From assembly GCA_018333535.1 (NCBI GenBank), contig JAGXTA010000071.1, positions 99,100 to 163,099 of the forward strand: DNA of 64,000 nt, given 5' to 3'. Each line of letters begins with the position of its first letter. Within the stretch, counting starts at the first letter, position 1. Positions 6,113 through 61,426 of the stretch are shown here, in pieces. The position numbers were made by a program, and so were the translations under genes. Origin of the DNA: Deltaproteobacteria bacterium (GTDB lineage: Bacteria; Desulfobacterota; BSN033; UBA1163). The notes beneath the pieces were generated by a model. That model was not told where the DNA came from. It did no database searches and was given only the letters and a program-made list of their open reading frames with translations.

Positions 6113-6451
6113 TTATTTGTCGTAATCCTCGAGGATCTTGCCGGTCCTTCCTCGTTCTACGATCTCATCCATTTTGGGGCCTAAATCGACTCCCATCTCC
6201 TTCATCCTTTTTTTTGCCCAGAGACCGACATTTCGGGAGTCCTTATAGAAATCGTCCCCCTTTGGTTTGGAGGTGTCAAGGCCGGCCAGACGGGATCCTT
6301 CAGTCTGGTGGACTGAAAAGGAAGATATTAATCTTTTGAGGTCATTGCCGCCACAAAACTTGCACTTGACCTTCCTGATTTCCCTTGAGTTGAGAAATAA
6401 CTGGCTGAACTCCCTTTCACATTGATTGCATCGATACTCGTAAATAGGCAT
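6113..6451 (-). CDS. FmdB-family zinc-ribbon putative regulatory protein
   Basis: 112 aa; N-terminal MPIYEYRCNQCEREF...CKFCGG with two CxxC pairs, typical of the FmdB family. Confidence 0.7.
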   Translation of the reverse strand: MPIYEYRCNQCEREFSQLFLNSREIRKVKCKFCGGNDLKRLISSFSVHQTEGSRLAGLDTSKPKGDDFYKDSRNVGLWAKKRMKEMGVDLGPKMDEIVERGRTGKILEDYDK

Positions 6452-6453
6452 CC

Positions 6454-6690
6454 TTATTTTCCCTTGCTTGCCTTTTTCTTTAACCCCTTCTTTTTAGATG
6501 GACTCTCATTTTCTGAGGACGATTCAAATTCTTCAATGTCAGCCCTATCTTCTTCCGGAAGAAATATCTTATCACTTGCATCCGGCAATCTGGACAGATG
6601 GATTTCATAGTCCTTTTGGATGATGACTCTGTCTTTGATGTTCCTTTCGATATTTCTCTTGTCGAACTTCTTACTCTCGTCTACGTGCAT
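6454..6690 (-). CDS. hypothetical acidic protein with Lys-rich C-terminus
   Basis: ORF track gives 6454..6756, but an internal start MHVDESKK at 6688-6690 has a GGAG RBS 7 nt upstream. No recognisable domain. Confidence 0.4.
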   Translation of the reverse strand: MHVDESKKFDKRNIERNIKDRVIIQKDYEIHLSRLPDASDKIFLPEEDRADIEEFESSSENESPSKKKGLKKKASKGK

Positions 6691-6922
6691 ATGAGTCTCC
6701 TTTTCGTAGAAAAAGAATTGAACGATTGGCAGCGAATGCACTGAATTCACATCCATTCGTATAATTCGTTTTCATTCGAGTTATTCGTTTAATGCTTCAT
6801 CATAAGAAATAGCATAATTCCGCATCACCTTCAAGGTGTTTCGTAACTTATTGTTAATTAAAGATAATTTAAGCATCCTGTAGACTGCCCGTTATTTATG
6901 AATGGAGAAATGTACAAAATTG

Positions 6923-6950
6923 TTGACAAATTACAAAAATGTCTATAATA
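6923..6950 (+). promoter_or_regulatory. sigma-70-like promoter candidate upstream of the KAS/histidine-kinase operon
   Basis: TTGACA at 6923-6928 and TATAAT at 6944-6949 (15-17 nt spacer depending on the -10 register), in an AT-rich spacer ~45 bp upstream of the 6992 start. Confidence 0.45.
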
Positions 6951-6991
6951 ATACGTAAGTTGTTTAACTCATTAAAAACTTTAAGAGAAAA

Positions 6992-8242
6992 ATGGACAAT
7001 CAAAAAAGAAGAGTAGTCATCACCGGTATGGGAGTCGTCGCCCCCAACGGGATCGGAATAGATAATTTCTGGGATTCCTTAGTCCACGGCCGGTCTGCAG
7101 TAAGAAGAATCACCCACTTCGACGCCTCCTCCTACCCCTGTCAAGTCGCCGCCGAAGTCCCCGATTTTGATCCCACGGATTATATGGATCCCAAAACTGC
7201 TAAAAGGTTGGACAAATTTGCCCAATTTGCTTTAGTAGCTTCAAAAATGGCTGTCGAAGATTCAAAATTTGATTTAGATTTAATTGATCCCTATAGGATT
7301 GGGGTAGCTATTGCAACTGGAATCGGTGGTGGGGAATGCAAAGAAAATCAACACATTATTTTTATGGAGAAAGGAGTCAAGAGAATAAGTCCTTTTACTG
7401 CAGTAATGATCTGTACTCATTCAGCTGCTGGTATTATTAGCTGTGAATTGGGAGTAAAAGGCCAAAATATTACAATATCTTCGGGTTGTACATCAGGGCT
7501 TGATGCAATCTACTCAGCTTATAATGCGATTCAATTAGGAGATGCTGATATAATGTTTGCTGGTGCCGGTGAAGCTCCCATTACACCTTATATTATTGCA
7601 ATTTTTTGTGCTGCCGGACTTCTTTCAAGGGATAATGGAGAACCAGAGAGAACGATTAAACCCTACGATTCTCGTGGAGAAGGAACAGTATTAGGGGAAG
7701 GAGGGGCCATATTGATATTGGAAGAGCTTCAAAGTGCTCTTAAAAGAAAAGCAAAAATATATGGCGAAATTTTAGGTTATGCTTCGTGCAATGAAGCTTA
7801 TAATATATTTAGAATAGATCCAAGCGGAGAAGCAACTGCAATGGTAATGAAAAAAGCAATAGAGATCGCTCACCTTAGCATAAAAGACATTGACTATATT
7901 AATGCTCATGGGAATGGTTCACCCGAATATGATTTAAATGAGACGGTTGCTATAAAAAAAGTTTTTGGCAAATCGGCAAACTCCATTCCTGTTACTTCAA
8001 TCAAACCAGTAACTGGGCAATCCTTTTCGGTTACTGGAATTCTCCAAATGATTACATGCCTATCAGTCATTAAACATGGTATTATCCCACCAACTATGAA
8101 TCATACAATTCCCTCAATAGGTTGTGATCTCGATTATGTGCCCAACCATTTCAGAAAGAAAGAAGTCAATATTGCCTTAATGAATGCTTTAGGATATGGT
8201 GGAGGTCATACAGCCCTGATCGCTGGTAGATTTAATTATTGA
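6992..8242 (+). CDS. beta-ketoacyl-ACP synthase II-like (FabF/KAS family), divergent
   Basis: 416 aa; active-site Cys (SSGCTSGLDA) and first His (YINAHGNGSP) conserved. The second catalytic His appears replaced by Gln (SIKPVTGQSFSV vs FabF STKSMTGHLLG). Stop overlaps the downstream kinase start (ATGA). Confidence 0.8.
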   Translation: MDNQKRRVVITGMGVVAPNGIGIDNFWDSLVHGRSAVRRITHFDASSYPCQVAAEVPDFDPTDYMDPKTAKRLDKFAQFALVASKMAVEDSKFDLDLIDPYRIGVAIATGIGGGECKENQHIIFMEKGVKRISPFTAVMICTHSAAGIISCELGVKGQNITISSGCTSGLDAIYSAYNAIQLGDADIMFAGAGEAPITPYIIAIFCAAGLLSRDNGEPERTIKPYDSRGEGTVLGEGGAILILEELQSALKRKAKIYGEILGYASCNEAYNIFRIDPSGEATAMVMKKAIEIAHLSIKDIDYINAHGNGSPEYDLNETVAIKKVFGKSANSIPVTSIKPVTGQSFSVTGILQMITCLSVIKHGIIPPTMNHTIPSIGCDLDYVPNHFRKKEVNIALMNALGYGGGHTALIAGRFNY

Positions 8243-10422
8243 ACTTGGAGAAAGATAAATTGTCCATCCCTACCATAACACTTTTATTTGCATTTTTAGT
8301 AAATTTAGGGCTTGGCCTTTTAGTATATATTAAAGCAACTTCTTACAAACGAGTAAATATTATTTTTGCCATCCTTGCCTGGTCTGCAGCCGGTTGGGCT
8401 TTTAGCTTTTTTCTGGTCTATCTTTTCACTGATAATCCTTTAAAATTATTTTTTGGAAGAATGGGTTTTGCAACATCGAGTATTATATCCACTGCATTTC
8501 TTTTATTTGCAATTATCTTTCCTAGTGAACAAAGAGCAGTTAGCTCATTTAAACTTATTATTTTGAGTTTGCCAGCTTTATTATTTTTGGGTTTATCTTT
8601 TACTGATAAGATAGTGTTTTCACTTGGCAGTGGTTTAAAAATGTTTTCCTATGGCCCATTTTATCCATTATTTTCTTTTTATTTAACAGGTTACATAATT
8701 TTAGGATTCGTTTTCTTGATAAAAACATATAGGAAGACTTCTGGACAAGAGAGACTCCAAGTTAAATACTGTTTATTGGGGATGTTTTTTACTTCGAGCC
8801 TTGGATTATTGAATAATTTATTTCTTCCGATGCTTGGGATTTCTATGCTTAATTGGCTCGGTCCGTCCTTAACAGTAATTATGGTAGGTTTTACAACCTA
8901 TTCCATTATTAAACATCGTTTGATGGATATTAATATTGTTTTTAAAAAAGGGACGACTTATATTCTTTTGTTGTTGCTTCTGTTTGTCCCCTCCTTTCTT
9001 TTAATCCTTCTTGGGCAGAAATTTTTCTATGGAAAAATTAATTATTTATTTACGGTGATGATGTTTTCGGTTCTTTTCCTGGTGGCACTCTTATTTTACA
9101 GGATCAAACCAAGGACTGAAAAGGCAGTGGACCAATTCCTTTTCAAAGAACGCTATAATTATCGCGAGACCCTGGGGGAATTGAGCAAGGCCATGGTGAA
9201 TATCCTCGATCTCCAATCACTTTTGAAGAAAATCATGGAGACCGTGACCCAAACCATGGGAGTGGATAAGGCGTCCCTGTTCTTATTGGATGACGAAAAA
9301 GGGGGTTATGATTTATTCGAATCGAAGAATATCAAGATGCCTGCCTCTTCGCCTCTCCTCCGCAAGGAGGCCCCTCTTCCCGGTTATTTACAGAAGATGA
9401 GAGAAATTGTTGTAAAAGAAGAATTAGCCAAAGGAACCAATATCCCCGAATTAAAAATGGTCATTGAGCAGATGACTTCGCTGGAAGCGGAGGTCAGCAT
9501 TCCCCTGCTTTCGAAAGGACAGCTTATCGGCATTATTAATCTCAGCCATAAATTCAATAAAGATGTCTATTATCAAGAGGACATTGAACTCCTCACCACT
9601 CTGGCCAATCAGACCGCCATTGCTGTTGAGAATGCAAGGCTCTTTGAAGACCTGAAAAGGTCAAAATCCTATATTCGCAGGGCGGACCGCCTCGCCTCCC
9701 TTGGAACCCTGACGGCAGGCCTGGCCCATGAAATTCGCAACCCCCTGGTTGCCATCAAGACGCTCACCCAGTTGTTGCCGGAACGGCTTGAGGATGAGGA
9801 ATTTCGTAATCATTTTCTAAAAATTGCCGCAGGAGAGGTCGATCGGATCTCACATCTGATCAATGAACTCCTCGATTTTGCCAGGCCTTCGATCCCAAAA
9901 TTGGAATTTGAAGATGTCAACAGCATTTTGGATGGAATGATCCTTCTGGTGTCGACAGAGAGCAAGAAAAAGAATGTTCATATTGAGAAACAATATGCGA
10001 CGGATCTTCCTTCCGTTAAGGTTGACCGGGAACAGATCAAGCAGGTTTTTTTAAACATCCTGCTAAACGCCATTGAAGCAACTCCTGAGAATGGGAAAAT
10101 CACTGTAAAAACCCATTCTTTTTTAAAACCCGGAGGGGAACCCTATCTTCAGGTCGAATTTAAGGATACGGGATGCGGCATCCCTCAAGAATATTTAGAG
10201 GAAATTTTCAATCCCTTTTATACAACGAAAACGACGGGAAGCGGCCTGGGACTGTCGATCTCCAACCAGATCGTACGGGACCACAAAGGATATATTGATG
10301 TTGAGAGTCAAAAGGACAAAGGGACCTCTTTCTTCATCAATTTGCCCGTGGACCAGGACCATCCAAGAAGAAGACGAGTTGATCTCGAAACTCAGCATAC
10401 GCCTTTTTTTGAGCCACGATGA
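8239..10422 (+). CDS. membrane sensor histidine kinase with multi-TM N-terminal domain, GAF, HisKA and HATPase_c; PEP-CTERM system kinase PrsK-like
   Basis: 727 aa; ~12 hydrophobic segments in the first ~290 aa. GAF-like region; H-box LAHEIRNPLVAIKTLTQLL; N-box LNILLNAIEA; G-boxes DTGCGIP and GSGLGLSI. Architecture matches the TIGR02916 description; PEP-CTERM proteins and a PrsT-like TPR lipoprotein lie elsewhere in the window. Confidence 0.75.
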   Translation: MNLEKDKLSIPTITLLFAFLVNLGLGLLVYIKATSYKRVNIIFAILAWSAAGWAFSFFLVYLFTDNPLKLFFGRMGFATSSIISTAFLLFAIIFPSEQRAVSSFKLIILSLPALLFLGLSFTDKIVFSLGSGLKMFSYGPFYPLFSFYLTGYIILGFVFLIKTYRKTSGQERLQVKYCLLGMFFTSSLGLLNNLFLPMLGISMLNWLGPSLTVIMVGFTTYSIIKHRLMDINIVFKKGTTYILLLLLLFVPSFLLILLGQKFFYGKINYLFTVMMFSVLFLVALLFYRIKPRTEKAVDQFLFKERYNYRETLGELSKAMVNILDLQSLLKKIMETVTQTMGVDKASLFLLDDEKGGYDLFESKNIKMPASSPLLRKEAPLPGYLQKMREIVVKEELAKGTNIPELKMVIEQMTSLEAEVSIPLLSKGQLIGIINLSHKFNKDVYYQEDIELLTTLANQTAIAVENARLFEDLKRSKSYIRRADRLASLGTLTAGLAHEIRNPLVAIKTLTQLLPERLEDEEFRNHFLKIAAGEVDRISHLINELLDFARPSIPKLEFEDVNSILDGMILLVSTESKKKNVHIEKQYATDLPSVKVDREQIKQVFLNILLNAIEATPENGKITVKTHSFLKPGGEPYLQVEFKDTGCGIPQEYLEEIFNPFYTTKTTGSGLGLSISNQIVRDHKGYIDVESQKDKGTSFFINLPVDQDHPRRRRVDLETQHTPFFEPR

Positions 10423-11990
10423 ACTATCAAGATTTAATTCACTCTCCCATCCTCTCCCCCGGGGTTGCCAAACTGGTTCAGAAATGCGCCCTGAACAACG
10501 CCCCTGTTTTTATCCAGGGCGAACAGGGGACGGGAAAAGAGCTGATCGCAAAGATCATCCATCATACAGGGGATTGGAAATCCTCTCTTTTTTACAGGGT
10601 GGATTGTCAAATCCTTCATGAGAATACTCTCTTTGACCACCTCTCTCCCCTTTTTGAAAAGATCCTTTTCGGGATGACCCCGGCGACCTTCTTTTTAAAC
10701 GAGGTGGGACGCCTCGGCCGTAGGGATCAGTTGAAACTCCTGGAACTGGTCGAGGACGGCCTGCTCCAGAACGGAGTGGAGAAAAAAACCGTTAAAAACA
10801 TCCGCTTCATCTCCTCCTCCTCGGAGAACTTAGAAGAAAAGGTGGCGCAGGGAGCATTTTCAGGGGACCTCTATTTCCGCTTAAGAACCATGGCCATCCA
10901 TGTCCCGCCGCTGAGGGACCGTCCGAGAGAAATCGGCGCCATCGCTCAATATATTCTCGAAGAGAGTGTCAAGCAGTTGAAGCTTAAAAGAATGGGGATC
11001 TCGAATGACGTCCTCAGGTTGTTGGAGAGATACTGGTGGCCCGGGAACCTGAAGGAACTGGAGAGGGTCGTCACCCGTTGCGCCATTTTATCAGAAGGTG
11101 AAAAGATTATGGAAAAAGATCTCTCGATCGAGAACGGGATGGATAGAAATTCCTTTTTCTCTTTCGTTGAAAAGGCGGAGACGAGGCCGGCGGCGCCTCC
11201 CAAGAACGAACCCTCCCGTAACCATTCCAACGGACTCAATATCCCCGATGCCTCGTATTTTTTCCTTGAATTGGTCCATCGCATCAAAAATCCCCTGGTC
11301 TCCATCAAGACCTTCACTCAACTGCTGAGGGATAAATTTAATGATGCGGAATTCAGGGGCTATTTCTACAGGATCGTCACCGAGGATATCGAAAAGATTG
11401 ACGGCGTGCTCAATGGCCTCCTCAATTACATCCGGATCAATCACCCGGTCGAGAAGAAAGACACCATTCATTTCATCATCGAAGATGTCCTGAAAAAGCA
11501 TGGGACGCAGATTGAAAACAAGAGGATCAAGCTATTCAGGAAGTTTGAAAAAGACCTTCCTGAAACGATCCTCCATGAAGAGCAGTTGCGATACATTTTG
11601 ACTTCCCTGATTCAGTATGCCATTCCTGCGATCCCAGCCAGCGGAAGCATCGGTTTTTTAACGAAGTCCCTGGATGACCGCCCGGTTCGCGTGGAAAACG
11701 GAGAAGGCCAAACGCCTTCCTCAACAGAGAGGAGATACATCGAAATCATGATGGTTTTCACCGGCTACAAGAAACCCATCGATCCGCTGGATACGTTATT
11801 GGGAGCGCCTTTACTACGCGAGGAGGAATTGACCGATCTGGAGATACGGCTCATCAAAGAGATGATCGAGAGGAACCGGGGGATGATGAAATTCGAAGTC
11901 AATGAGAAGAAGCTCAGGACCCTGGTTTCCCTGAAATTCCCCGCGGAGAGAAGAAAGGTGATCACTTATCAGGCTACGAATTCATCATAA
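10419..11990 (+). CDS. fusion of a sigma-54-type AAA+ domain (degenerate GAFTGA) with a degenerate histidine-kinase-like domain
   Basis: 523 aa; Walker A GEQGTGKELIAKIIH, arginine-finger region GDLYFRLRTMAIHVPPLRDR, GAFTGA position reads MTPATF. No HTH. C-terminal half has HisKA-like VHRIKNPLVSIKTFTQLL but no N-box Asn and no DxGxG. Paralogous to 35387..36244. Start overlaps prsK-like stop. Confidence 0.7.
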   Translation: MNYQDLIHSPILSPGVAKLVQKCALNNAPVFIQGEQGTGKELIAKIIHHTGDWKSSLFYRVDCQILHENTLFDHLSPLFEKILFGMTPATFFLNEVGRLGRRDQLKLLELVEDGLLQNGVEKKTVKNIRFISSSSENLEEKVAQGAFSGDLYFRLRTMAIHVPPLRDRPREIGAIAQYILEESVKQLKLKRMGISNDVLRLLERYWWPGNLKELERVVTRCAILSEGEKIMEKDLSIENGMDRNSFFSFVEKAETRPAAPPKNEPSRNHSNGLNIPDASYFFLELVHRIKNPLVSIKTFTQLLRDKFNDAEFRGYFYRIVTEDIEKIDGVLNGLLNYIRINHPVEKKDTIHFIIEDVLKKHGTQIENKRIKLFRKFEKDLPETILHEEQLRYILTSLIQYAIPAIPASGSIGFLTKSLDDRPVRVENGEGQTPSSTERRYIEIMMVFTGYKKPIDPLDTLLGAPLLREEELTDLEIRLIKEMIERNRGMMKFEVNEKKLRTLVSLKFPAERRKVITYQATNSS

Positions 11991-11996
11991 GGAAGC

Positions 11997-12190
11997 CAGG
12001 AAGGCAGGAAAAATTCAAATTCTAAAACCCAAATTCTTTACCTTTTTTTTATTCATGGTTTCCTGGATTCCTAATAAGGAGTAACATAATAAGGAAGCCA
12101 AGAAGGCAGGAAAAATTCAAATTCTAAAACCCAAATTCTTTATTTTTTTTTTCATGGTTTCCTAAATTCCTAATGAAAAAATTCCTAATA
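11997..12190. repeat. tandem duplication (~95 bp x2) containing the dispersed AGGAAGCCAGGAA motif, upstream of the NtrC-type regulator
   Basis: Sequence aaggaagccaggaaggcaggaaaaattcaaattctaaaacccaaattcttta...catggtttcct..attcctaat occurs twice in tandem. The ttcctggcttcct motif recurs near 20470, 40965, 43855, 51080 and 54820. Confidence 0.7.
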
Positions 12191-12194
12191 AGGA

Positions 12195-13607
12195 GTGGCG
12201 ATGGTTGGAAAGGAAGCATTGAAAAGCATTCTGGTTGTCGATGACGAGGTGGGGGCCAGAGAATCCCTAAAAATGATTTTAAAGGGGGAGTACCAGGTCT
12301 TTTTGGCGAAAAACGCCGAAGAGGCCTTTCAACAGGTCGATGGCCATATCCCTGACGTAATCCTTCTTGATATCATCCTGCCGGATATGGATGGCCTGAG
12401 GATTCTGAAAAAGTTGAAGCAGACCCTTCCCGAACAGATCGTCATCATGATCACTGCCACCAAGACAGTGAAGACAGCCGTGGAAGCGATGAAACTCGGA
12501 GCTTATGACTACGTCACCAAGCCCTTCGATGTGGATGAGCTTCGCTTGATCATCAACCGGGCCCTTTCCACAAAGGCGCTGAAGGAGGAAAACCAGCGGC
12601 TCTGGATGGAGGTTGACCGGAATTTTGGCTTTGAAAATATCGTGGGAAAGAGCAAGGGAATGAAGGATATTTTTAAAGTGGTGAAGCAGGTGGCCGATAC
12701 CCGATCCACGGTTCTGATCATGGGAGAGAGCGGAACAGGGAAAGAACTCATCTCACGCGCCATCCACTACCATAGCCCGCGGAAAAATCATCCCTTCGTC
12801 ACCATCAACTGTGCGGCCATTCCGGAGACCCTGATCGAGAGCGAACTCTTCGGCCATGAAAAGGGGGCCTTCACCAATGCGATCGAGAAAAAATTGGGTC
12901 GTTTTGAGGCGGCCCATGAGGGGACTCTCTTTCTTGACGAGATTGGTGAATTGAGCCTGATGACCCAGGCGAAGATCCTCCGGTTTCTCGAAGAGAAGGA
13001 ACTCAACCGGGTGGGAGGTTCGAAGACGATTAAGGTCGATGTGAGGCTCATTACAGCGACCAATAAAGATTTGCCCCAGCTTGTCAAGACAGGACAGTTT
13101 CGAGAGGATCTCTACTACCGGATCAATGTGGTTCCCATCATCCTTCCCCCGTTGCGAGAGCGAAGAGAGGATATCCCCCTATTGATCAGCCATTTTACAA
13201 AGAAATTCAGCGAGGAGAACCAAAAACAGTTGAAGGGGGTCAGCAAAGAGGCCTTGGAATTGCTGCTGAACTACGAATGGCCCGGAAATGTCAGGGAACT
13301 GGAGAACCTGATCGAACGGGTGATTGCCCTCACCCACAATGAGTATATCCAGCCGGACGAATTGCCCCTTCCCATCATCAATCAATCCAAGGCGAATGGT
13401 TTGAAAGAATCGGTCTTAAGCGGCCAGATCTCCTTCTCGAGGGCGGAGGAAGAATTTGAGAAGGAAATCATTCTGGATGCCCTGAGAAAAGCCAATTTTA
13501 TTCAATCGCACGCCGCAGAGATTTTAGGGATCAGTCGAAGGATTTTGAAATATAAGATGGACAAATTGGGGATCCAGCAGCAGGACCGGATCAAGCAATA
13601 CTCCTAA
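12195..13607 (+). CDS. sigma-54-dependent response regulator (NtrC family: REC + AAA+ + Fis-type HTH); PrsR-like
   Basis: 470 aa; REC domain (VVDDEVGARESL...DIILPDMDG); Walker A GESGTGKELISRAIH; GAFTNA motif; FREDLYYRINVVPIILPPLRERRED; C-terminal HTH ILGISRRILKYKM. Confidence 0.85.
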   Translation: MAMVGKEALKSILVVDDEVGARESLKMILKGEYQVFLAKNAEEAFQQVDGHIPDVILLDIILPDMDGLRILKKLKQTLPEQIVIMITATKTVKTAVEAMKLGAYDYVTKPFDVDELRLIINRALSTKALKEENQRLWMEVDRNFGFENIVGKSKGMKDIFKVVKQVADTRSTVLIMGESGTGKELISRAIHYHSPRKNHPFVTINCAAIPETLIESELFGHEKGAFTNAIEKKLGRFEAAHEGTLFLDEIGELSLMTQAKILRFLEEKELNRVGGSKTIKVDVRLITATNKDLPQLVKTGQFREDLYYRINVVPIILPPLRERREDIPLLISHFTKKFSEENQKQLKGVSKEALELLLNYEWPGNVRELENLIERVIALTHNEYIQPDELPLPIINQSKANGLKESVLSGQISFSRAEEEFEKEIILDALRKANFIQSHAAEILGISRRILKYKMDKLGIQQQDRIKQYS

Positions 13608-13841
13608 ATCTTCCACCTGCCAAATATTTAGTTCCTGCGCCGAAAGATACGGTTTTAAGTTCAAGAGGCCCGCCTAAAATGTAAACCCTTGTTCATTTTT
13701 GTACGTCCCTTTTAGCCCGATAATGCCAGAATGCCACCCTCATAACTTGTAATAACAATAGCCCTGAAATATCAACAGGTTATTATACTGAAACAATTCA
13801 ATGATTTTAATTCAAAATGGCAACATTTTTGCTTTAATAGT

Positions 13842-15005
13842 ATGTCTATTCAATCGGATCGAAAGGAAAAAAGAATGGAACCTAAAAAAAGTTTGGCCAA
13901 TATCCTGATTGTGGATGACGAAATAGGCCCGAGGGAATCCTTAAGAATGATTCTTAAACCCCATTATAACATCTTCATTGCAGAGAACGGGCATTCGGCC
14001 ATCCAGATGCTCCGGCAGACCGAGATGGATGTTGTCACCCTGGATATTAGAATGCCCGGCATGTCAGGCATTGACACCCTCAAGGAGATCAGGCTTCTCG
14101 ATCCTGATGTGATGGTCGTCATCATCACGGGCTTTGGGACGCTAAAGAGCGCGATCGAGGCCATCCGATACGGGGTGTTCGATTATATCCCGAAACCTTT
14201 TAATGTCCCGGAGATCATGTGCATTATTGAAAAATCGATCCAGCGGAGAAAATTGAACCTGAAAGTCAAGGAGATGCTTCGTCAGCGCTCCGATTCCGGC
14301 AATCAAAACGGTCCGATGGATACCGACCTTTTGCTTTCGAAGGAAATGAGCGGTCTTGCCGATTCGGGAAACGGAGAAAGAGGCGCTTCGGAAAATCAGA
14401 ACTGTCTCGAATTTTCAAAAGTTCTTGCCTTTACGCTTGAGGAGAAAGACCCTTATACGTCGGGACATTCAGAGCGCGTTTGTTACTATTCTGATTTCAT
14501 CTCAAAAAAATTGTCGCTCAATCCAAAGGACAGGAATGAAATCAGGGTCGCTTCTTACCTCCATGATATCGGAAAAATTGGCATCAGCAACCGTTTTATC
14601 AATAAGAAGGGCGCTCTCTCGTCCACCGAATGGGCCATCATCAAACAGCATACCAAAAAGTCACTCGAACTCTTGGTGCCCCTGAACCTTTCACCCCATA
14701 CCCTTTCCTATGTTCACCACCACCATGAGCGGTACGATGGAACCGGTTATCCGGATGGATTGTCGGAGGACCGGATCCCATTGGGAGCCAGGATTATTGC
14801 AATTGCGGATGCTTATGACAGCATGACCTCCGACCGGCCCTACCGCAAACCCCTAACGAATGGGGAGGCAAAAAATGAGCTCTTGAAATTTGCCGGAAAA
14901 CAGTTTGATCCCCAGTTGGTCACCATTTTTCTGAACATTCTTAGGGAGATGGAAGAGGTCTTTCTGGTCAAGGACCATGTCAGAGTTCCATCCGTTTCCT
15001 ATTAA
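13842..15005 (+). CDS. response regulator with HD-GYP phosphohydrolase domain (putative c-di-GMP phosphodiesterase)
   Basis: 387 aa; N-terminal REC (ILIVDDEIGPRESL...LDIRMPGMSG); C-terminal HD-GYP motifs YLHDIGKIGI and HHHERYDGTGYP. Confidence 0.85.
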   Translation: MSIQSDRKEKRMEPKKSLANILIVDDEIGPRESLRMILKPHYNIFIAENGHSAIQMLRQTEMDVVTLDIRMPGMSGIDTLKEIRLLDPDVMVVIITGFGTLKSAIEAIRYGVFDYIPKPFNVPEIMCIIEKSIQRRKLNLKVKEMLRQRSDSGNQNGPMDTDLLLSKEMSGLADSGNGERGASENQNCLEFSKVLAFTLEEKDPYTSGHSERVCYYSDFISKKLSLNPKDRNEIRVASYLHDIGKIGISNRFINKKGALSSTEWAIIKQHTKKSLELLVPLNLSPHTLSYVHHHHERYDGTGYPDGLSEDRIPLGARIIAIADAYDSMTSDRPYRKPLTNGEAKNELLKFAGKQFDPQLVTIFLNILREMEEVFLVKDHVRVPSVSY

Positions 15006-15022
15006 ATGAAAAGGAACCTTCA

Positions 15023-15784
15023 ATGAACCAGATCATCCGATGCATCACCTGCGATGAAATATTCACAAAAACCCCTTACGACCAGTGGCCTGAGTATGAG
15101 TATGTTTCGGTTAACCGTCCTGAGCCCAGCCGGACGATTGAAAAAGATGATTTTCAAGATTTTTTAAAACATCATCGGAACCATCCGATGGAGGACCTGA
15201 AGGTTCTGGAGGACTCCTTCGTCAGCGAAAAACCTTATTTCGAGCCGACAAAGGCCTCCTATTTCAAGGCGACAAATGGAAAAGAGATGTTTGTGATCAA
15301 GAAATTCAGGAAGAGGATCGATGAACCACTGTCCTATCAATTGATCCGGGGAGACTACTCCTTAAAACTTCTCCGCCTTGAAATCCAGGCCGAAGAGATT
15401 GTCAAACAACTTAAAAAAGAACTGAATCCCTCCCCTCTTCCGGAGCCTCAGTTAGAGGCCTTTCTCAAATTGTATCGGCAGGTTCTCAAAACCATCGATA
15501 TAAATAGCCTGGAGAGGGTTCCCGAAGATTCCCCTCATCCCCTCGAGATCTATTATAAAATGGATGATGTCAGCCTCGCTTACCTGCTAAGAAATTGCAG
15601 GACAATATTTAAAGGGCAGGAATATCAAGCCGTCGAGGCGTTTATCCAGCGTCACAGGGAGGATGGGGTTTTATTGTTGAAAGCCGTCTACCAGATTCAA
15701 ATCTCTGAGTCATCCAAGTCAAAGAAAGGCGCCCTTCCCATCCCTCACGCCATAGAAGGGAAGAAATATGTAGAGAAAACATAA
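15023..15784 (+). CDS. hypothetical protein
   Basis: 253 aa ORF with good coding appearance directly downstream of the HD-GYP regulator. N-terminal CITCDE...; no recognisable domain. Confidence 0.5.
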   Translation: MNQIIRCITCDEIFTKTPYDQWPEYEYVSVNRPEPSRTIEKDDFQDFLKHHRNHPMEDLKVLEDSFVSEKPYFEPTKASYFKATNGKEMFVIKKFRKRIDEPLSYQLIRGDYSLKLLRLEIQAEEIVKQLKKELNPSPLPEPQLEAFLKLYRQVLKTIDINSLERVPEDSPHPLEIYYKMDDVSLAYLLRNCRTIFKGQEYQAVEAFIQRHREDGVLLLKAVYQIQISESSKSKKGALPIPHAIEGKKYVEKT

Positions 15785-16017
15785 GCCCCTTCTCCCCTGG
15801 AGATTCCTGAAAAAGTCCGGCAATCTCTGTTTACACCGATTAGGAACCGATTGCACAGATTAGAAATGCATTGTTAAATAAATAAAAATCTGTGGGATCA
15901 TTTTTTAAAATCTGTGTAATCAGAGAGCGAAAATCAGTTTTTCAAAGTTTTCCTCTCTTAAAAATTGACAAGGCGCCGGAAGTCTGTTAACTTTTTAATA
16001 CAAATGCAACAAATCAT

Positions 16018-25722: not shown

Positions 25723-26922
25723 ATGTCAAGACGGAAAGCGACGGAGTTTGAGGGCGTGAGATACCGGAGCCATCCGAGCCGGAAGCATGGGATCAAGAAT
25801 GATCAGTATTTCTCCATCCGTTACCGAGTGGACGGGAAGAGAGTCGAGGAGGGTTTGGGGTGGGCCAGCAAGGGGATGACGGCAAAGAAGGCAGCGCTTC
25901 AGCTTGCAGAGCTTCAAGAGGCGCACAGGAAGGGGACAGGTGAACCTGTAACCCTTCGAGAGAAACGGAAGATTGCCAGGGCAAAGAGAGGGAAGCAAGA
26001 GAAACAGGGGATCACATTCGGAGATTATTTCATCAATACTTTCATTCCACAGGCTGTCATTGAAAAACCGAGGGAAACGAAAGATAAAAAATCCCACTAT
26101 GAACACTGGATCAAGCCGGTAATGGGCGCCCTTCCCTTCCCGGAGATCGGCGTCCTTGAATTAGAGAGGGTCAAGACAAACATGTTGACCGCTGGTAAGG
26201 CTCCCCGAACGATTCAATATGTGTTTTCAACAATTCGGCGGGTATGGAATGATGCAAAATTGAAGGGGATCGTATCAGAGGAAAGTCCGACCCGGAAGAT
26301 CAAACTGGACCGCTTCGATAACAAGCGGGCCAGGTATTTCACCCATGATGAGGCGGAAAAATTCTTGACCGAACTGAAAAAGAGAAATGGTTCGTTATGG
26401 GATATGGCTCTCGTTTCTCTTCAATCGGGCCTTCGCTTCAGTGAAATTGCGAACCTGAGATACGGGGATATTGACCTAAAGAGAAATATCATTGGGATCC
26501 GGGACAGCAAGGGAGGTTTTTCAAGATATGCCCGAATGACCGAAGAGGTCAGGAATGTTTTTTCAAGAATGGAGCCCGGGGCCAGGGAAGCCCTCATTTT
26601 CCATGATGCCGATGGAATGAGGATCAAGAGGCCGTCGAAAATTTATATGAAGGTCATAGACGGCCTGGGATTCAATAACGGCGTAACAGACCGGCGACAA
26701 CGATTGACATATCACTCTTTGCGACATACATATGCAAGCTGGCTTGTAGATCGGGGAGTCGGGCTGTATGATGTTCAAAAACTTCTCGGTCATAAGAACA
26801 GCCAACTAACCGAGCGATACAGCCATTTATCAGATACCCGGCTGGACAATGACGTGAGGGAATTCGAAAAAGGAATCAAGCAGGCCCGGAGAGGTAAGGT
26901 CGTTGCAATAGGAAAGCGTTAA
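25723..26922 (+). CDS. tyrosine-type site-specific integrase (phage integrase family)
   Basis: 399 aa; C-terminal catalytic region LTYHSLRHTYASWLVDRGVGLYDVQKLLGHKNSQLTERYSHL (R..HxxR..Y). Confidence 0.9.
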   Translation: MSRRKATEFEGVRYRSHPSRKHGIKNDQYFSIRYRVDGKRVEEGLGWASKGMTAKKAALQLAELQEAHRKGTGEPVTLREKRKIARAKRGKQEKQGITFGDYFINTFIPQAVIEKPRETKDKKSHYEHWIKPVMGALPFPEIGVLELERVKTNMLTAGKAPRTIQYVFSTIRRVWNDAKLKGIVSEESPTRKIKLDRFDNKRARYFTHDEAEKFLTELKKRNGSLWDMALVSLQSGLRFSEIANLRYGDIDLKRNIIGIRDSKGGFSRYARMTEEVRNVFSRMEPGAREALIFHDADGMRIKRPSKIYMKVIDGLGFNNGVTDRRQRLTYHSLRHTYASWLVDRGVGLYDVQKLLGHKNSQLTERYSHLSDTRLDNDVREFEKGIKQARRGKVVAIGKR

Positions 26923-30245: not shown

Positions 30246-30489
30246 TGGATGTCTCGAAGAGATCGGCAAAGGATACAGGCCGGGCCTGCTGCCGTGGCTG
30301 AAACAGCAGCCAGCCCGATGGCGACGGCTGCTGAACCTGGAGGACGCAATCAATAAGGCGGCGCTTGGGGGCGGTCAGGTAGGGTTGACGGCGGCACTGT
30401 CCGAGTACAAGGACTTCTTCCGGGAGATGGTGACGGCGTACGAAATGAGTAACACATTTCCATTATTCGAAGGCAGGGCAAATGAGTAA
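30226..30489 (+). CDS. hypothetical small protein
   Basis: 87 aa ORF overlapping the neighbours by a few codons. Weak support. Confidence 0.3.
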   Translation: MDNSLIDGCLEEIGKGYRPGLLPWLKQQPARWRRLLNLEDAINKAALGGGQVGLTAALSEYKDFFREMVTAYEMSNTFPLFEGRANE

Positions 30490-36811: not shown

Positions 36812-39097
36812 TTACTTTAATTTCTCTAACACACTCTTCGCCTCTTCGGCTCCTGCAAACTTAGCGTCCAATTCAAGGGCTTTTTTCAGCTCCCTCTTTG
36901 CATTTTCGTTATCACCATTCTTAAGGTAAGCCATTCCAAGATGGTATCGCATGACAGGATTGTCCGTAATTTTTTCATTCGCCTCTTTCAAATAAGTAAT
37001 CGCACGGGTGAAAATATTCTTTTTGTAATAAACCCATCCGAGGGTATCCGAGATGTGGGGGTCATCCGGAAACTGTTCCTTTGCGCCTTGAGCTAAATTC
37101 AAGGCTTCATCAATATTCTCACCCTTCTCCGCATAGAGATAAGCTAGGTTATTGGCTGCAGGGGCGAATTTAGAATTAATTTTCAGGGCCTTCTGGTAGT
37201 ATTCCTTGGCCTTCTCATACTTCTTCTGAGTGTCATAGATAATGCCTAATCCCATGAGGGCAGAAAGAGAATCCGGCGCCTTCTGGAGAGCGGCACTGTA
37301 TCCCTCGATGGCCTTCTCTGTTAAATTCTGCCGGATATAAAAACTGGCAAGGGAGGTATGAAATCCTGCAACATTGGGATTGAGTTCGATCGCCTTTTTA
37401 TAATTCGTTTCTGCCTGGTCCGCCTCTTTATTTACCTCGTAAAGACGACCCAGCATATTGTAGAAAAAAGGATTTTGTGGAGAAGCCTTAATCTGTGCTT
37501 CCACCCTCTCCAATGCCTTTTTGCTCTCTTTCTGGTTCATGTAGACGACGGCAATGAGATTAAGCGCCTCTAAAAAATTTGGCTGGAGGGACAATGCCTT
37601 CTCAAATTGGGGTAATGCATCCTTCTCCCTCTTTTGCACCAAAAGGATTCGTCCTTTATGGAAATATCCGACTGGATTATTGGGCGCGATCTGAATGACT
37701 TCTTCAAAAGACTTGCTGGCTTTCGGGATATCCCTCTTCAGGAGATAGATGTTTCCAAGGATCAGATGGGCCTGGATCGATTTAGGGTCTCGTTTCAAAA
37801 TCTCCTGTGCTTCCTCAATGGCTAAATCTAAAGCCCCTGTCCTGAGATGGATATCTGCAAGCAGCAATCTCCCTTCAATCCAATTGGGGTTCAGTTTAAC
37901 CGCCTCGGCCAGCACCGTCTTTCCCTGCTGGATATCCCTGTTGCCGAGATGGGCAAGGCCGAGGAAGTGATGGGCCATAAAAGATTTTGGATTATCTTTG
38001 AGGTAAGACTGAAATAAATTAATGGCATCATTGAATTCAGTCTTGACCAGATAGAGGCGGCCCTTGAGGAATATTCCTTCATCGCTTTTGGGATTGATCT
38101 CAAGGATTTTCGCAACCATCTCAGAGGCCTTATCAAACTTACGATCATTAAGGTGGACTTCGGCCAGTTTAGCCCTTGCAGGAATATTTTTCGAATCCAC
38201 CTCGAGCGCCTTCTGGTAGGCCTCAATGGCCTTCTCTTTCTTCCCCCAGATTAAATAGAAGTCTCCCAGATGGATGTGAGAAAGGACCTTCTTGGGATCT
38301 ACTTCGATAGATTTGATGAATTGTTTTTCTGCATCCTCCATTTTCCTTAAAGAAACGTAGAAATTTCCCAAGGCAATGTAAGTATTTCGGTCTTTAGGTT
38401 CGATTTTAATCACCTCAATCAGTTCAGCCTCAGCCAACTCGGCTTTCCCTGTTCTCCGATAGAATTCAGCCAGTCCATATCGAGCCTTTGTCGATTTTTC
38501 ATCGACCTGGATGGCCTCTTTGAATGTCTGTTCTGCCTTAGCAAAATCCTTCTTCATAATATAAAGGTTGGCTAAATGGAGATGGGCTTCAATCTTCTTG
38601 GGATCTTGTTCGATCGCCTTCTTCGCCTCCTCAATGGCCTTGTCCAGATTCCTATCCACAGTATAGATGGAGCTCATGAGCAGACGGCCCGAGGCATTGT
38701 TTGGATCTTTTGCTAGGATCTTTTCGGCCTGTTCTTTTGCCTTCTGGGGGTCTCTTGACAGGAGAAAGAGATTTCCAAGCTGAAGTCTCGCTTCAATTAA
38801 ATCGGGGTTTAACTCAATACTTTTCGAAAACTCAGAAAAAGCCTCCCGAAACTCTCTCACTCCTAAGTGGGTGAGCCCGAGTTTGTAACGGGCCTCGGCA
38901 TTCTTGGGTTCGATCTGAAGAACATTCTTGTATTCGATCATGGCTTCTTTGAATTTGTTTTGCGCGAAATACTTCTCTCCCCTCTTCCAGTGCTTCTCCT
39001 TTTTTGCTTCCTTGCTGCAACCCGATAATCCGGACAGAATGAAGCAAAAAAGAATGATAAAAACAAAAACCGATCTCCTCTTATTTAAAAAGTCCAT
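36812..39097 (-). CDS. TPR-repeat lipoprotein (PEP-CTERM system PrsT-like)
   Basis: 761 aa; signal peptide and lipobox (ILSGLSGCSKE), then >15 TPR repeats throughout. Confidence 0.7.
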   Translation of the reverse strand: MDFLNKRRSVFVFIILFCFILSGLSGCSKEAKKEKHWKRGEKYFAQNKFKEAMIEYKNVLQIEPKNAEARYKLGLTHLGVREFREAFSEFSKSIELNPDLIEARLQLGNLFLLSRDPQKAKEQAEKILAKDPNNASGRLLMSSIYTVDRNLDKAIEEAKKAIEQDPKKIEAHLHLANLYIMKKDFAKAEQTFKEAIQVDEKSTKARYGLAEFYRRTGKAELAEAELIEVIKIEPKDRNTYIALGNFYVSLRKMEDAEKQFIKSIEVDPKKVLSHIHLGDFYLIWGKKEKAIEAYQKALEVDSKNIPARAKLAEVHLNDRKFDKASEMVAKILEINPKSDEGIFLKGRLYLVKTEFNDAINLFQSYLKDNPKSFMAHHFLGLAHLGNRDIQQGKTVLAEAVKLNPNWIEGRLLLADIHLRTGALDLAIEEAQEILKRDPKSIQAHLILGNIYLLKRDIPKASKSFEEVIQIAPNNPVGYFHKGRILLVQKREKDALPQFEKALSLQPNFLEALNLIAVVYMNQKESKKALERVEAQIKASPQNPFFYNMLGRLYEVNKEADQAETNYKKAIELNPNVAGFHTSLASFYIRQNLTEKAIEGYSAALQKAPDSLSALMGLGIIYDTQKKYEKAKEYYQKALKINSKFAPAANNLAYLYAEKGENIDEALNLAQGAKEQFPDDPHISDTLGWVYYKKNIFTRAITYLKEANEKITDNPVMRYHLGMAYLKNGDNENAKRELKKALELDAKFAGAEEAKSVLEKLK

Positions 39098-45663: not shown

Positions 45664-46079
45664 GATCCGGTCACGAAGGGCATTGTATTGTTTTTGTAAA
45701 CCCGATAACTCTTTTTTTCCTGACCCGTCAGCTCAGGAGGACGGACTCGCAGCGGGAGGCCATACATGGTAACCAGACACAGGAATTTATTGCCTTCCGG
45801 ATCATTTTTCTTAAGGAACGTCCTGATGGGGGCGGCAATATACTTTTCAAAGTCATTCCTGCTGCATTCCTCCTCCGATGAGGTGTTTAGCAATATCAGG
45901 TTGTTTGAGGGAATATGCCGTTTCTCCATATAATATTTAGCCAACTCCACACTGTGCCACGCCATCTTATTGGCAACGACTACTATATTTTCAGGTGTCA
46001 ATCCCCAGCAACCGGGTTGTTCTCCAAAGATTGCGCATGGAATAAACAAAAATATAAATAAAAATATTTTAACCCTCAT
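45660..46079 (-). CDS. hypothetical secreted protein; probable N-terminal part of a frameshift-split gene
   Basis: 139 aa with signal peptide MRVKIFLFIFLFIPCAIFG. Ends 4 nt into the next ORF; the A7 tract lies ~80 nt upstream of its stop. Confidence 0.5.
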   Translation of the reverse strand: MRVKIFLFIFLFIPCAIFGEQPGCWGLTPENIVVVANKMAWHSVELAKYYMEKRHIPSNNLILLNTSSEEECSRNDFEKYIAAPIRTFLKKNDPEGNKFLCLVTMYGLPLRVRPPELTGQEKKSYRVYKNNTMPFVTGS

Positions 46080-46366: not shown

Positions 46367-46392
46367 ACTTATTAACTCATTCTCTCATTAAC

Positions 46393-51277: not shown

Positions 51278-52042
51278 TTACTTTTTCATCCTCTTCCTAA
51301 CAAAGTACCCAAGGCCGATGAGGCCTGAGCCGAGAAGGAGAAGGGTGCTGGGTTCAGGCACAGATACAGAACCTGAATCATAAATAGCATATAACCCATG
51401 ACCATTGAATGATATGAGCACTTCTGAACGAGGGTCACTGAGAAGAATATCAAGTGCATTATTTCCATTATTTTGGTATAAGTGGTCTACTCCTGCGAAT
51501 ATTGGATGAGAGCTGCTTATTTCAATATTTCCCTGAACACCGTTATAGAAAGAACCAAACCCCAAACCGAAATAGTTTAAGAAGGTATTCCATCGCGCAG
51601 CTTCGTCTACCGGTCCGCCCCATCCTGTACCACCTGCAAGATATACATTACCGCCAGCGTTTACATAGTTAATAAGCACAGTGTTATCTGCAGAATCTCC
51701 GGCAATAAAAACACCGTCATAAGTTAAAAGTGTCGCCAGATTGAATGTGATCCCCATTGTCACATTCCAAGTATGACCAGCAGTTGTCATTGTAGATGCC
51801 AAGTGAGATCCTGTTAGACCGAAATTTGATGAGTAAGCAAGGAAATTACCAGGGGAGCCTCCGGTGAACCATTTAGCGACATTATTAACATAGGTTGCGG
51901 GGTCGTTAATTGGATTAACAGTAAATCCATAGTTGGTCAACTGCCATTCATCATTCGCAAGCACTATCTTTCCAGCCTGCGCACCAGAAGTCGACAACAG
52001 ACAGATAAACAACGCAGTAAAACAAGCTAATATCGTCTTCAT
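51278..52042 (-). CDS. PEP-CTERM domain protein (exosortase substrate)
   Basis: Likely start MKTILACFTALFICLLSTSGAQA (signal peptide). C-terminal VPEPSTLLLLGSGLIGLGYFVRKRMKK. Last ~90 nt of CDS plus ~140 nt of 3' flank are nearly identical to 60400-60560. Confidence 0.8.
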   Translation of the reverse strand: MKTILACFTALFICLLSTSGAQAGKIVLANDEWQLTNYGFTVNPINDPATYVNNVAKWFTGGSPGNFLAYSSNFGLTGSHLASTMTTAGHTWNVTMGITFNLATLLTYDGVFIAGDSADNTVLINYVNAGGNVYLAGGTGWGGPVDEAARWNTFLNYFGLGFGSFYNGVQGNIEISSSHPIFAGVDHLYQNNGNNALDILLSDPRSEVLISFNGHGLYAIYDSGSVSVPEPSTLLLLGSGLIGLGYFVRKRMKK

Positions 52043-52320
52043 AATTTCCTCCTTTCTATTGTAATTGCTTTTAATTTTAGCATGAATCATACCAAAACCA
52101 AATTAACCCGGTAATTGTTTGCAACCTATTAATTTATTTAAATAATTAAATAAAAACACAAAGAATATTCAAGGTCCACCCAAGCCCCATTTTTTAAAGA
52201 ATTGTAAAATAATTTTACAAAATCAATTCCATTCATCCCAATTGTACTAAATATAAATTAATTCAATATGTTATAACAAAATCAATCCGAATTAAAAATG
52301 TAAGCGTTTACGACATAAAT

Positions 52321-60466: not shown

Positions 60467-61426
60467 TTACTTTTTTATCCTCTTCCTAACAAAGTACCCA
60501 AGACCGATGAGGCCTGAGCCGAGAAGGAGAAGGGTTGAGGGTTCTGGAACTCCAGTAGGTGGAGCGGCTCCTGCCGGCAGATCGATGACTGCTACAACGC
60601 CGGAAAGGCAATCCGAAGTGACTCCCGTGGTAAGGTTGAGATTGTTCAGCCCAGGGCTTAGGAAACTCGTGATATCAAACCGTATAATGTCCCAGAGAAA
60701 CCCATTACTTGGTCCACCGAGTCCACCGGGGACAGACGCACCTTGGAATATCGGTCCTGTAGGTACAAGTGTCAGGCCGTTGAGGATGAGAGCGTTATCC
60801 GTAAAAGTCTGCCCATCGCCTACATGCATTTCAAGAAAGGCGTTACCGGATGTGTAATTGATCCCTGAGAGGGTGATGTTCCAACCAGGGGCATCGTATG
60901 CATTGTCAATGTTGGAGTCGTTACCGTTGAATATGACAATGTCGCGATTATTATTTGTGTCACCGTCTTGGAAAAAGGCCATGAGGGAGACACCGTTGAT
61001 ATCCACTATAGGCGGCCCAGGTTTATAGAAATTGCTAAGCGAGTAGATCCCGTTACCGAGAACCAGAGATGTCACATTCGCCCTGTATGCCTGGCTGCAG
61101 GTATAACCCCAGCAATTGTCATCGGAAATTCCGAGGGGTGTGCCGGTAATATTTGTGCCGTTGAATGTGACATTCTGATTGGCGGAGAGGGCTGTGTCGT
61201 TTGAGGGTCCGTGCCAATAGAGAAGAGCACTGTCAACCGGCCCGGAAACCCCGGCGAGGCTGATGGTCCCTGTCCCTAAACCCCGCATCCCGCCATAACC
61301 TGCGGAGGTATAGTCAGTTCCGAAAACTGTTTCGAACGGCACAAGGTCTGTTGCTCCGACTCCACCGGCAATTAGAGTCATACAGAGGCTAGCCATTCCA
61401 ATAAAAATTGACAAATTCCTTTTCAT
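60467..61426 (-). CDS. PEP-CTERM domain protein (exosortase substrate), Asn/Gly/Thr-rich
   Basis: 319 aa; signal peptide MKRNLSIFIGMASLCMTLIAGGVGA. C-terminal VPEPSTLLLLGSGLIGLGYFVRKRIKK is identical to the tail of 51278..52042. Confidence 0.8.
   Translation of the reverse strand: MKRNLSIFIGMASLCMTLIAGGVGATDLVPFETVFGTDYTSAGYGGMRGLGTGTISLAGVSGPVDSALLYWHGPSNDTALSANQNVTFNGTNITGTPLGISDDNCWGYTCSQAYRANVTSLVLGNGIYSLSNFYKPGPPIVDINGVSLMAFFQDGDTNNNRDIVIFNGNDSNIDNAYDAPGWNITLSGINYTSGNAFLEMHVGDGQTFTDNALILNGLTLVPTGPIFQGASVPGGLGGPSNGFLWDIIRFDITSFLSPGLNNLNLTTGVTSDCLSGVVAVIDLPAGAAPPTGVPEPSTLLLLGSGLIGLGYFVRKRIKK

Follow-up and report, generated by a model that had tools for sequence, protein, structure and literature searches.

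The window analysed here, 64,000 nt of contig JAGXTA010000071.1 from a Deltaproteobacteria bacterium (assembly GCA_018333535.1), encodes a 416-amino-acid (aa) FabF-like β-ketoacyl synthase (KAS; 6992..8242, + strand; Pfam, NCBIfam and structure alignment). It is followed directly by a 720-aa sensor histidine kinase of HisKA_7TM-GAF-HisKA-HATPase_c architecture, reading from TTG 8260 (8260..10422, +; Pfam and NCBIfam). Further along the same strand lie a gene that fuses a sigma-54-interaction AAA+ domain to HisKA (10419..11990, +), a PrsR-like, NtrC-type sigma-54-dependent response regulator (REC, AAA+, HTH_8; 12195..13607, +; Pfam and NCBIfam), and a response regulator with REC and an HD-GYP-type (HD_5) domain, likely a cyclic di-GMP (c-di-GMP) phosphodiesterase (13842..15005, +; Pfam and NCBIfam; syntenic in relatives). 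An earlier note on this DNA had singled out the synthase as a divergent KAS coupled to the kinase within a low-GC patch. Related loci retrieved from genome and metagenome collections are labelled below with L-numbers, and our comparisons draw on 91 related KAS loci.

The KAS carries both ketoacyl-synt domains at full length (Pfam PF00109, 2.7e-52; PF02801, 5.9e-28), as expected for the N- and C-terminal halves of the thiolase fold. Its closest solved structures are FabF enzymes (4ls5 from B. subtilis, E 7e-109, and 1j3n), which phmmer aligns over residues 4-412 at ~45% identity. SSGCTSG falls opposite the nucleophile Cys loop (Cys166, codon 7487-7489) and NAHGNGSP opposite the first catalytic His (His306, codon 7907-7909), in agreement with the earlier description of a KAS II-like enzyme that retains both residues. 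The same alignment sets ...SIKPVTGQ of the KAS against ...STKSMTGH of FabF. Lys338 (8003-8005) is thus retained, and Gln343 (CAA, 8018-8020) takes the place of the second catalytic His (His340), just as had been proposed. The catalytic triad in the window is therefore Cys166-His306-Gln343 rather than Cys-His-His.

Several further features separate the KAS from FabF. It scores 436.8 bits against the TIGR03150 fabF equivalog model, below the cutoff of 493.75, though it passes the broader subfamily model PRK07314 (422.2 against a cutoff of 387), and public records label it 'beta-ketoacyl-ACP synthase II'. In FabF, Thr270, Ser271, Thr305 and Thr307 anchor the phosphopantetheine arm (10.1101/2021.02.13.431092). 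The corresponding regions are altered in the KAS (DAYHxT to EAYNIF, HGTST to HGNGS), with Thr305 replaced by an invariant Asn, Thr270 by Phe, and the Ala just before the Cys by Gly. Where FabF has a GFGG gate loop (Phe400), the window reads G-Y-G-G, mostly G-[FY]-G-G in the family: 61 loci carry Phe at this position, 22 Tyr and 2 Ile. Domain and profile scans of the 64-kb window found no second KAS, acyl carrier protein (ACP) or fab genes. Judged by its sequence, the KAS is a non-canonical FabF in which the malonyl/phosphopantetheine side of the pocket is remodelled, and the suspicion that it might not be a canonical elongating enzyme holds up: it lies below the equivalog cutoff, lacks the FabF phosphopantetheine contacts and sits outside any fab cluster.

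The weight that had been placed on the Gln itself is not borne out. Of 89 close family members, 73 have Gln at position 343 and 16 (18%) have His, the latter being kinase-linked all the same. The best 120 database homologues (70-100% identity) all read SIKP[IV][TI]GQ, metagenomic relatives at 60-66% identity read SIKP[IV]TGH, and KAS-kinase pairs of Elusimicrobiota and Armatimonadetes also keep the His. We therefore rejected Gln343 as a defining or inactivating trait. His (CAY) and Gln (CAR) codons are one wobble base apart, which points to a tolerated polymorphism within the family. Because the two residues interchange in this way, Gln343 can be seen as a conservative swap for the hydrogen-bond donor Nε2 of His, a role we infer it retains.

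Whichever residue occupies position 343, every kinase-linked KAS has a Gly before the Cys and has lost Thr305. Cys166, His306, Asn308, Asp314, Lys338, Pro339 and Gly342 are invariant in 89-90 family loci; in the Clostridia-type members L040, P0174 and P0183 the first His is Phe. A rough neighbour-joining tree, indicative only given its long branches, midpoint rooting and absence of support values, separates the kinase-linked KAS from housekeeping FabFs.

Chain-length-factor-like and KASIII-like identities were also rejected. KS-β/chain-length factors swap the Cys, typically to Gln, and pair with a KS-α, whereas Cys166 is invariant in 90 loci and no second KS is present in the window. KASIII and CHS resemble the KAS in having a non-canonical triad (Cys-His-Asn), and Gln343 could donate an amide hydrogen bond as their Asn does, but they belong to another branch of the fold and the best matches of the KAS are all FabF-type. 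A separate relative, P0123 (L090:628-2241; 537 aa, 52% identical to the KAS), carries Tyr in place of the Cys and Asp in place of Gln343, has an N-terminal extension of ~120 aa, adjoins an ECF-type sigma factor fragment without a kinase, and is probably catalytically dead.

Pairing with a membrane-bound sensor kinase

The KAS and the kinase had been described as joined by an ATGA stop/start overlap, but no ATG is present at this junction. The KAS stop is TGA 8240-8242, and the longest kinase open reading frame begins at TTG 8239 (a TTGA overlap). The most likely start is TTG 8260, 17 nt past the KAS stop, because three indications agree on it. In ~45 orthologous loci the start candidates are almost always TTG only, and the conserved kinase N-terminus opens at 'L-x-I-P...LLFAF', corresponding to TTG 8260. 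A GGAG that is, from its position, the likely ribosome-binding site (8247..8250, +) lies 9 nt upstream. Finally, the JGI gene call on the identical locus L177 starts at 8260; an ENA call shortens the protein to 530 aa. The two genes are tightly linked, with a gap of 0-35 nt in most loci, and translational coupling between them is at most putative. A genuine ATGA overlap occurs one gene later, between the kinase and the AAA+-HisKA gene (10419-10422).

An AlphaFold2 model of kinase residues 1-290 gives a multi-helix bundle (pLDDT 76.8), and cytoplasmic conservation resumes after helix 7 at an invariant 'KHRLMDINIV.KKGTTY'. The earlier designation of the kinase as PrsK-like is supported in architecture and by an end-to-end alignment to TIGR02916 (PrsK; residues 35-703 on positions 20-679 of a 679-position model), but not in score, which at 170.3 bits falls below the cutoff of 300. 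Public gene calls often begin the kinase at an internal ATG, yielding an 'ATP-binding protein' of ~500 aa, or list the seven-transmembrane (7TM) part as a separate hypothetical protein (window 8239-9800). The TTG start in AT-rich sequence likely explains these mis-called N-termini, which hide both the 7TM domain and the pairing. At L178 (7001-9161) two proteins stand in for the kinase, one of 391 aa with the 7TM part and one of 318 aa with GAF, HisKA and HATPase, through either a real split or a frameshift.

The pairing of the two genes is nearly invariant. A homologous 7TM-GAF kinase directly follows the KAS in 77 of the 78 related loci (among the 91) that have at least 400 nt downstream of it. 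Many of these loci are syntenic, with DnaJ and Zn-ribbon genes on the opposite strand, followed by the KAS, the kinase, the AAA+-HisKA gene, the NtrC-type regulator and the REC-HD-GYP gene. The pair is also kept where the flanks differ (L003, after shikimate genes; L009; L098-101; L106; L110; L114). We found no description of this KAS-kinase module in the searchable literature outside subscription journals.

The sole kinase-less member among the 78 is L001, a Gln-type KAS of 76% identity (L001:10001-11257; GCA_037443425.1, JBBIOI010000002.1). This gene has a G+C content at third codon positions (GC3) of 0.23 and stands by itself, on the opposite strand to runs of small unannotated ORFs, one of them ArdC-like, with Wzz and polysaccharide-export genes nearby; it may be mobile-element cargo.

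Conservation of the pair, which the earlier note had left as a matter for comparison with related genomes, extends to other phyla. KAS homologues only 38-50% identical to that of the window again precede HisKA_7TM kinases. L084 has a KAS (50% identical), kinase, AAA+-HisKA gene and regulator; in L171 the pair follows rpoBC, with a GAF-PAS-HisKA protein in the AAA+-HisKA position; L089 reads ACP, KAS, 7TM; L174 KAS, 7TM; and L175 KAS, ICMT-like methyltransferase, kinase. A profile of the transmembrane (TM) domain, run on 72 FabF loci (L012-L083), recovered four pairs, and the other 68 loci were without such a kinase. The four are L040 (Clostridia), L015 (Elusimicrobiota; methyltransferase, B12-binding radical SAM (B12-rSAM), methyltransferase, KAS, hybrid kinase), and L052 and L060 (Armatimonadetes), whose KAS has an N-terminal PocR sensor domain. 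These PocR-KAS fusions span L052:1602-3584 and L060:8226-10286, and a neighbouring soluble kinase in L060 also has PocR. L085 shows a variant order of sigma-54 regulator, KAS, methyltransferase and B12-rSAM. In total, the pairing was found in at least four other phylum-level lineages, at <50% identity and with different flanks.

Certain gene families recur beside the pair in these loci: an ACP (L089), ICMT/PEMT-like methyltransferases (L015 twice, L060, L175, L085), B12-rSAM genes (L015, L085, L006, L125) and a gene resembling short-chain dehydrogenases/thioester reductases (L178). A 3-hydroxyacyl-CoA dehydrogenase follows the kinase in L009.

Upstream of the KAS lies a conserved 43-nt promoter/operator block, TGTACAAAATTGTTGACAAATTACAAAAATGTCTATAATAATA (6911..6953, +), containing TTGACA (6923-6928) and TATAAT/AATAAT hexamers. 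It is the best sigma-70-like match in 6400-15900 (11/12) and is nearly identical 5′ of the KAS in L004, L005, L007, L008, L009 and L011, of which L009 represents a different genomic context. Relative to L127/L128 the block is 93% identical, compared to 75-85% for its flanks. A site search found no sigma-54 site upstream of the KAS, and an Rfam scan no riboswitch in its leader. A sigma-70-like promoter without a sigma-54 site suggests that KAS and sensor are expressed together and that the KAS is not a sigma-54 target of the regulator. The segment directly 5′ of the -35 hexamer, TGTACAAAATTG (6911-6922, +), is conserved as strongly as the hexamers themselves; together with the hexamer it forms an imperfect palindrome (12/18 bases by eye) and may be an operator.

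A hypervariable block across both genes

The AT-rich patch reported over the KAS and the TM part of the kinase is real by sliding GC and by GC3. It contains the GC minimum of the window, where the 1-kb interval at 8001 drops to 0.334 (window mean, 0.446). The effect shows at synonymous sites: the KAS has a GC3 of 0.297 and residues 1-290 of the kinase one of 0.303, compared to 0.515 for the remainder of the kinase and 0.43-0.65 for genes nearby. Across related loci, mean GC3 is 0.341 for the KAS (n=91), 0.373 for the kinase TM part (n=70) and 0.481 for its cytoplasmic part (n=44); relative to the cytoplasmic part, GC3 is depressed in the KAS in 43 of 44 loci and in the TM part in 42 of 42. Since the depression is present in essentially all orthologous loci, it does not mark a recent island. 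We accordingly rejected recent acquisition, as the locus is also syntenic in relatives, with DnaJ/Zn-ribbon genes on one side and sigma-54 genes on the other. Of the two origins the earlier note had offered, the mosaic kinase gene survives, in the form of an independently evolving block, and horizontal acquisition, if meant as recent, does not.

This block is a hypervariable, low-GC3 cassette (approximately 7200..8850, +) that runs from about residue 70 of the KAS to its end and on through TM1-6 of the kinase, as delimited by nucleotide and amino-acid identity windows. The nearest relative of the window by its flanks is L127/L128 (DnaJ, 86%). Nucleotide identity between the two is 0.61-0.70 from ~7200 to ~8850 and 0.75-0.93 on both sides. 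Sliding windows of amino-acid identity give the same block, reaching kinase residue ~200. L004, with more distant flanks, has the same cassette type as the window. Taken by segment, identity to the window is 71-86% for DnaJ, 72-81% for the cytoplasmic part of the kinase and 74-80% for the regulator; for the KAS it is 46-84% and for the kinase TM part 40-79%, the two moving together.

To quantify this, we compared pairwise identities by segment in 35 non-redundant loci. KAS identity correlates with that of the kinase TM part (r=0.81), and a partial Mantel correlation controlling for the cytoplasmic part is also 0.81, a value that none of 2000 permutations reach. The corresponding values are 0.15 for KAS versus the kinase cytoplasmic part and 0.01 for KAS versus DnaJ, and flank and cassette identity are uncorrelated (r=0.03). 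The kinase TM part is the most divergent segment (41-99% pairwise identity). Thus, the KAS and TM1-6 co-diversify independently of the cytoplasmic half of the kinase and of the flanks.

Individual pairs of genomes display this pattern sharply. L006 and L125 share 99-100% nucleotide identity across ~4 kb (TPR, MobA, DnaJ and Zn-ribbon genes), and then drop abruptly to ~80% in a divergently transcribed B12-rSAM gene, ~75% in the KAS and 60-64% in the first ~500 nt of the kinase (60-83% over the block overall), with identity back to 95% at about kinase residue 235. The B12-rSAM gene of these loci lies inside the variable block and diverges with the cassette. In other pairs, flanks and cassette are 93 and 62%, 91 and 54%, or 92 and 71% identical, respectively, and L093/L096 present the reverse case, with a cassette at 89.5% and flanks at 79.4%. 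Metagenome contigs could be chimeric, but the L006 arrangement recurs in an independent assembly (L103) and the same pattern appears in several independent pairs. At the syntenic locus L178, the slot is occupied by the SDR/thioester-reductase-like gene, by a KAS of only 46% identity whose motifs are closer to those of FabF, and by the split kinase. From these comparisons, the AT-rich patch is a recombining, hypervariable block from about KAS residue 70 through TM1-6. A KAS that differs by 25-40% between genomes with identical neighbours is not behaving as a housekeeping FabF, and its allelic hypervariability argues strongly against such a role, which bears indirectly on the possibility, raised in the earlier note, that it is the organism's only FabF.

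A candidate lipid signal and its alternatives

Four features of these loci together recall the pherotype architecture of comQXPA (Bacillus) and agrBDCA (Staphylococcus): a polytopic kinase gene preceded directly, on the same strand, by that of a production-type enzyme; one promoter for both; a variable block made of the enzyme and the N-terminal membrane sensor; and a conserved cytoplasmic half, here with conserved flanks. As in those systems, cassette variation is incongruent with strain relatedness, and the polymorphic comQXP′ region is reportedly also lower in G+C. The KAS loci differ in having a fatty-acid-type condensing enzyme rather than a peptide precursor with its modifier, a HisKA_7TM-GAF kinase and a predicted sigma-54/HD-GYP output. 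In ComP, the N-terminal membrane domain is variable and the cytoplasmic domain conserved, defining pherotype groups (PMC4008528).

We favour, with a probability of roughly one half, an interpretation in which the KAS would be the synthase of a lipid signal and the kinase its membrane receptor, feeding a PrsK/PrsR-like sigma-54 and HD-GYP pathway. Under this model, the two genes would be expressed as one operon from the conserved sigma-70-type promoter, and the synthase would load an acyl chain on Cys166 to make a β-keto-acyl or related product. In other lineages, neighbouring B12-rSAM, ICMT-type carboxyl-methyltransferase, reductase or ACP genes would tailor this product. It would enter the membrane and be read by TM1-6 of the kinase, which would pass the signal on to the NtrC/PrsR-like sigma-54 activator as well as to the REC-HD-GYP protein. 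The output, as suggested by gene context, may comprise sigma-54-dependent PEP-CTERM/exopolysaccharide genes and c-di-GMP turnover. Polymorphism of the cassette would create specificity groups, as do agr and comQXP pherotypes. That genes for an ACP, methyltransferases, B12-rSAM enzymes and a reductase keep reappearing in the module speaks for a short biosynthetic route with a sensor-matched product.

Pairs of a fatty-acyl-type signal enzyme and a sensor kinase are familiar from RpfF/RpfC/RpfG (diffusible signal factor), PhcB/PhcS (3-hydroxy fatty acid methyl esters), LuxM/LuxN and CqsA/CqsS. The Rpf system likewise ends in an HD-GYP response regulator, and PhcB is a methyltransferase, as are the ICMT-like enzymes that recur in the KAS-kinase module. 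To our knowledge, synthases of the RpfF, PhcB, LuxM and CqsA types are unrelated in sequence to FabF-type KAS, and the sensor domains of their kinases belong to different families.

The stimulus of PrsK was called obscure when the system was described, with no mention of a ketoacyl synthase (Haft et al. 2006, PMC1569441), and we found no later report of a PrsK-type stimulus in the same literature. A co-varying enzyme partner offers a concrete candidate for the stimulus of PrsK-type 7TM kinases: a lipid from the adjacent synthase. A broader proposal, which we hold more tentatively and at somewhat under even odds, is that FabF-type synthases and HisKA_7TM kinases form an unrecognised family of lipid cell-cell or self-signalling systems with pherotype-like cassettes, spread over several anaerobic lineages that are mostly uncultured, and a source of ligands for the PrsK-type sensors in control of PEP-CTERM/exopolysaccharide and c-di-GMP outputs. 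If a lipid stimulus from the adjacent synthase is confirmed, bacterial signal synthases would gain a new chemical class and a new enzyme family, pherotype-style diversification of specificity would reach past the peptide systems of Gram-positive bacteria into uncultured anaerobes of sediments and the subsurface, and lipid signalling would be tied to floc or biofilm formation through PEP-CTERM and c-di-GMP. In public annotation the module is invisible, appearing as a plain 'beta-ketoacyl-ACP synthase II' beside a kinase often shortened to 'ATP-binding protein'.

Several considerations weigh against a lipid signal. The analysis is one of comparative genomics throughout and all organisms concerned are uncultured; product and ligand are both putative. 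The locus in the window is itself without ACP, tailoring enzyme or exporter, and pairs in other genomic contexts lack an adjacent response regulator. Catalytic residues drift (His or Gln at 343; Phe for the first His in the three Clostridia-type members), which is unusual for a committed synthase. For the kinase TM domain, a fold search yielded no lipid-binding relative, its matches being weak and of a generic GPCR-like 7-helix kind (E at least 0.003, TM ~0.5). Finally, the covariation of KAS and TM part could arise in part from physical linkage in recombination blocks, and membrane domains generally vary more than catalytic ones.

Next in probability comes a sensor subunit, an unlikely alternative for which the drift of the decarboxylation residues speaks. 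Here the KAS-like protein would bind, or be acylated by, acyl-ACP or acyl-CoA at Cys166 and dock on the membrane or juxtamembrane region of the kinase, reporting the state of lipid metabolism, so that the covariation would trace a protein-protein interface. Co-evolving binding partners are expected to covary as strongly as the KAS and TM part do, the Cys is present in every kinase-linked member while residues of decarboxylation and condensation drift, the FabF phosphopantetheine contacts are not conserved, and the PocR-KAS fusions place a KAS within signalling architectures. Yet His306 and Lys338 are invariant in ~90 family loci, the rSAM gene diverges along with the cassette in L006/L125, and recurring tailoring enzymes and a dedicated ACP suit a pathway rather than a sensor.

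Control of membrane homeostasis, in which the 7TM kinase would sense a bilayer property and the co-transcribed FabF paralogue would remodel bulk acyl chains, as in DesK/DesR-des or thermal control through FabF, appears improbable. A FabF-family enzyme does lie beside a multi-helix membrane sensor, and some loci have lipid-metabolism neighbours, such as the dehydrogenase of L009. However, nothing would drive a bilayer sensor and an enzyme for bulk lipids to diversify together as alleles between near-identical genomes, the KAS is without a sigma-54 promoter though its cognate regulator is sigma-54-dependent, and the altered malonyl/phosphopantetheine pocket argues against ordinary elongation.

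We consider it quite doubtful that selection acts on the exposed kinase helices alone, for instance from a phage or antagonist, with the KAS hitch-hiking in the recombination block and the pairing reflecting phylogenetic inertia. The block does behave as a unit of recombination with sharp edges, and the kinase TM part is the most divergent segment, but on the left the block ends inside the KAS or past the rSAM gene, not where the kinase begins, and inertia is insufficient to explain pairing in at least four other phylum-level lineages at <50% identity. A plain housekeeping FabF that tolerates the His-to-Gln change, next to the kinase by chance or on a recent AT-rich island, fits the FabF annotation, database matches and PRK07314 score but is highly implausible given the sub-cutoff equivalog score, a KAS 60-83% identical between genomes with 99-100% identical flanks and only 46% identical at syntenic L178, the near-invariant kinase pairing, and the GC3 depression across orthologous loci.

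Regulators and PEP-CTERM genes in the window

The AAA+-HisKA gene that follows the kinase has an unusual architecture (10419-11990), lacking receiver and HTH domains as well as a clear HATPase; syntenic loci and L084 keep it in this position. The NtrC-type regulator beyond it scores 461.5 against TIGR02915 (cutoff 502.6), and its best NCBIfam match, AtoC, is also below cutoff. A sigma-54 promoter-like site with one mismatch to TGGCAC-N5-TTGCW, TGGCAACATTTTTGCT (13818..13833, +), precedes the REC-HD-GYP gene. It lies only 8 nt before ATG 13842, and if it is used, the real start of that gene is more likely the JGI-called 13875.

The window also contains components associated with PEP-CTERM systems. 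PEP-CTERM proteins are encoded at 60467..61426 (-) and 51278..52090 (-), the first of them with a zero-mismatch sigma-54 site upstream (61630-61645, -), and a TPR protein (36812..39097, -) scores 424 bits against the PrsT model, above its cutoff of 312. Together, these suggest that the organism has a PEP-CTERM system ~27-50 kb from the kinase. The locus resembles PrsK/PrsR/PrsT in the multi-TM, GAF, HisKA, HATPase architecture of its kinase and, less clearly, in the nearby NtrC-type regulator and the PEP-CTERM, PrsT-like and sigma-54 elements of the window. It differs in that kinase and regulator fall below the curated cutoffs and are separated by the extra AAA+-HisKA gene.

Elsewhere in the window, large ORFs of 740 aa and 273 aa with no Pfam or NCBIfam match (28023-31303) come after a phage-type integrase (25723-26922, +), and together they may represent an integrated element. 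A cluster of adjacent genes at 43868-48813 (-) encodes a papain-family peptidase, a TIGR03790-family protein and a PilY1-like β-propeller protein.

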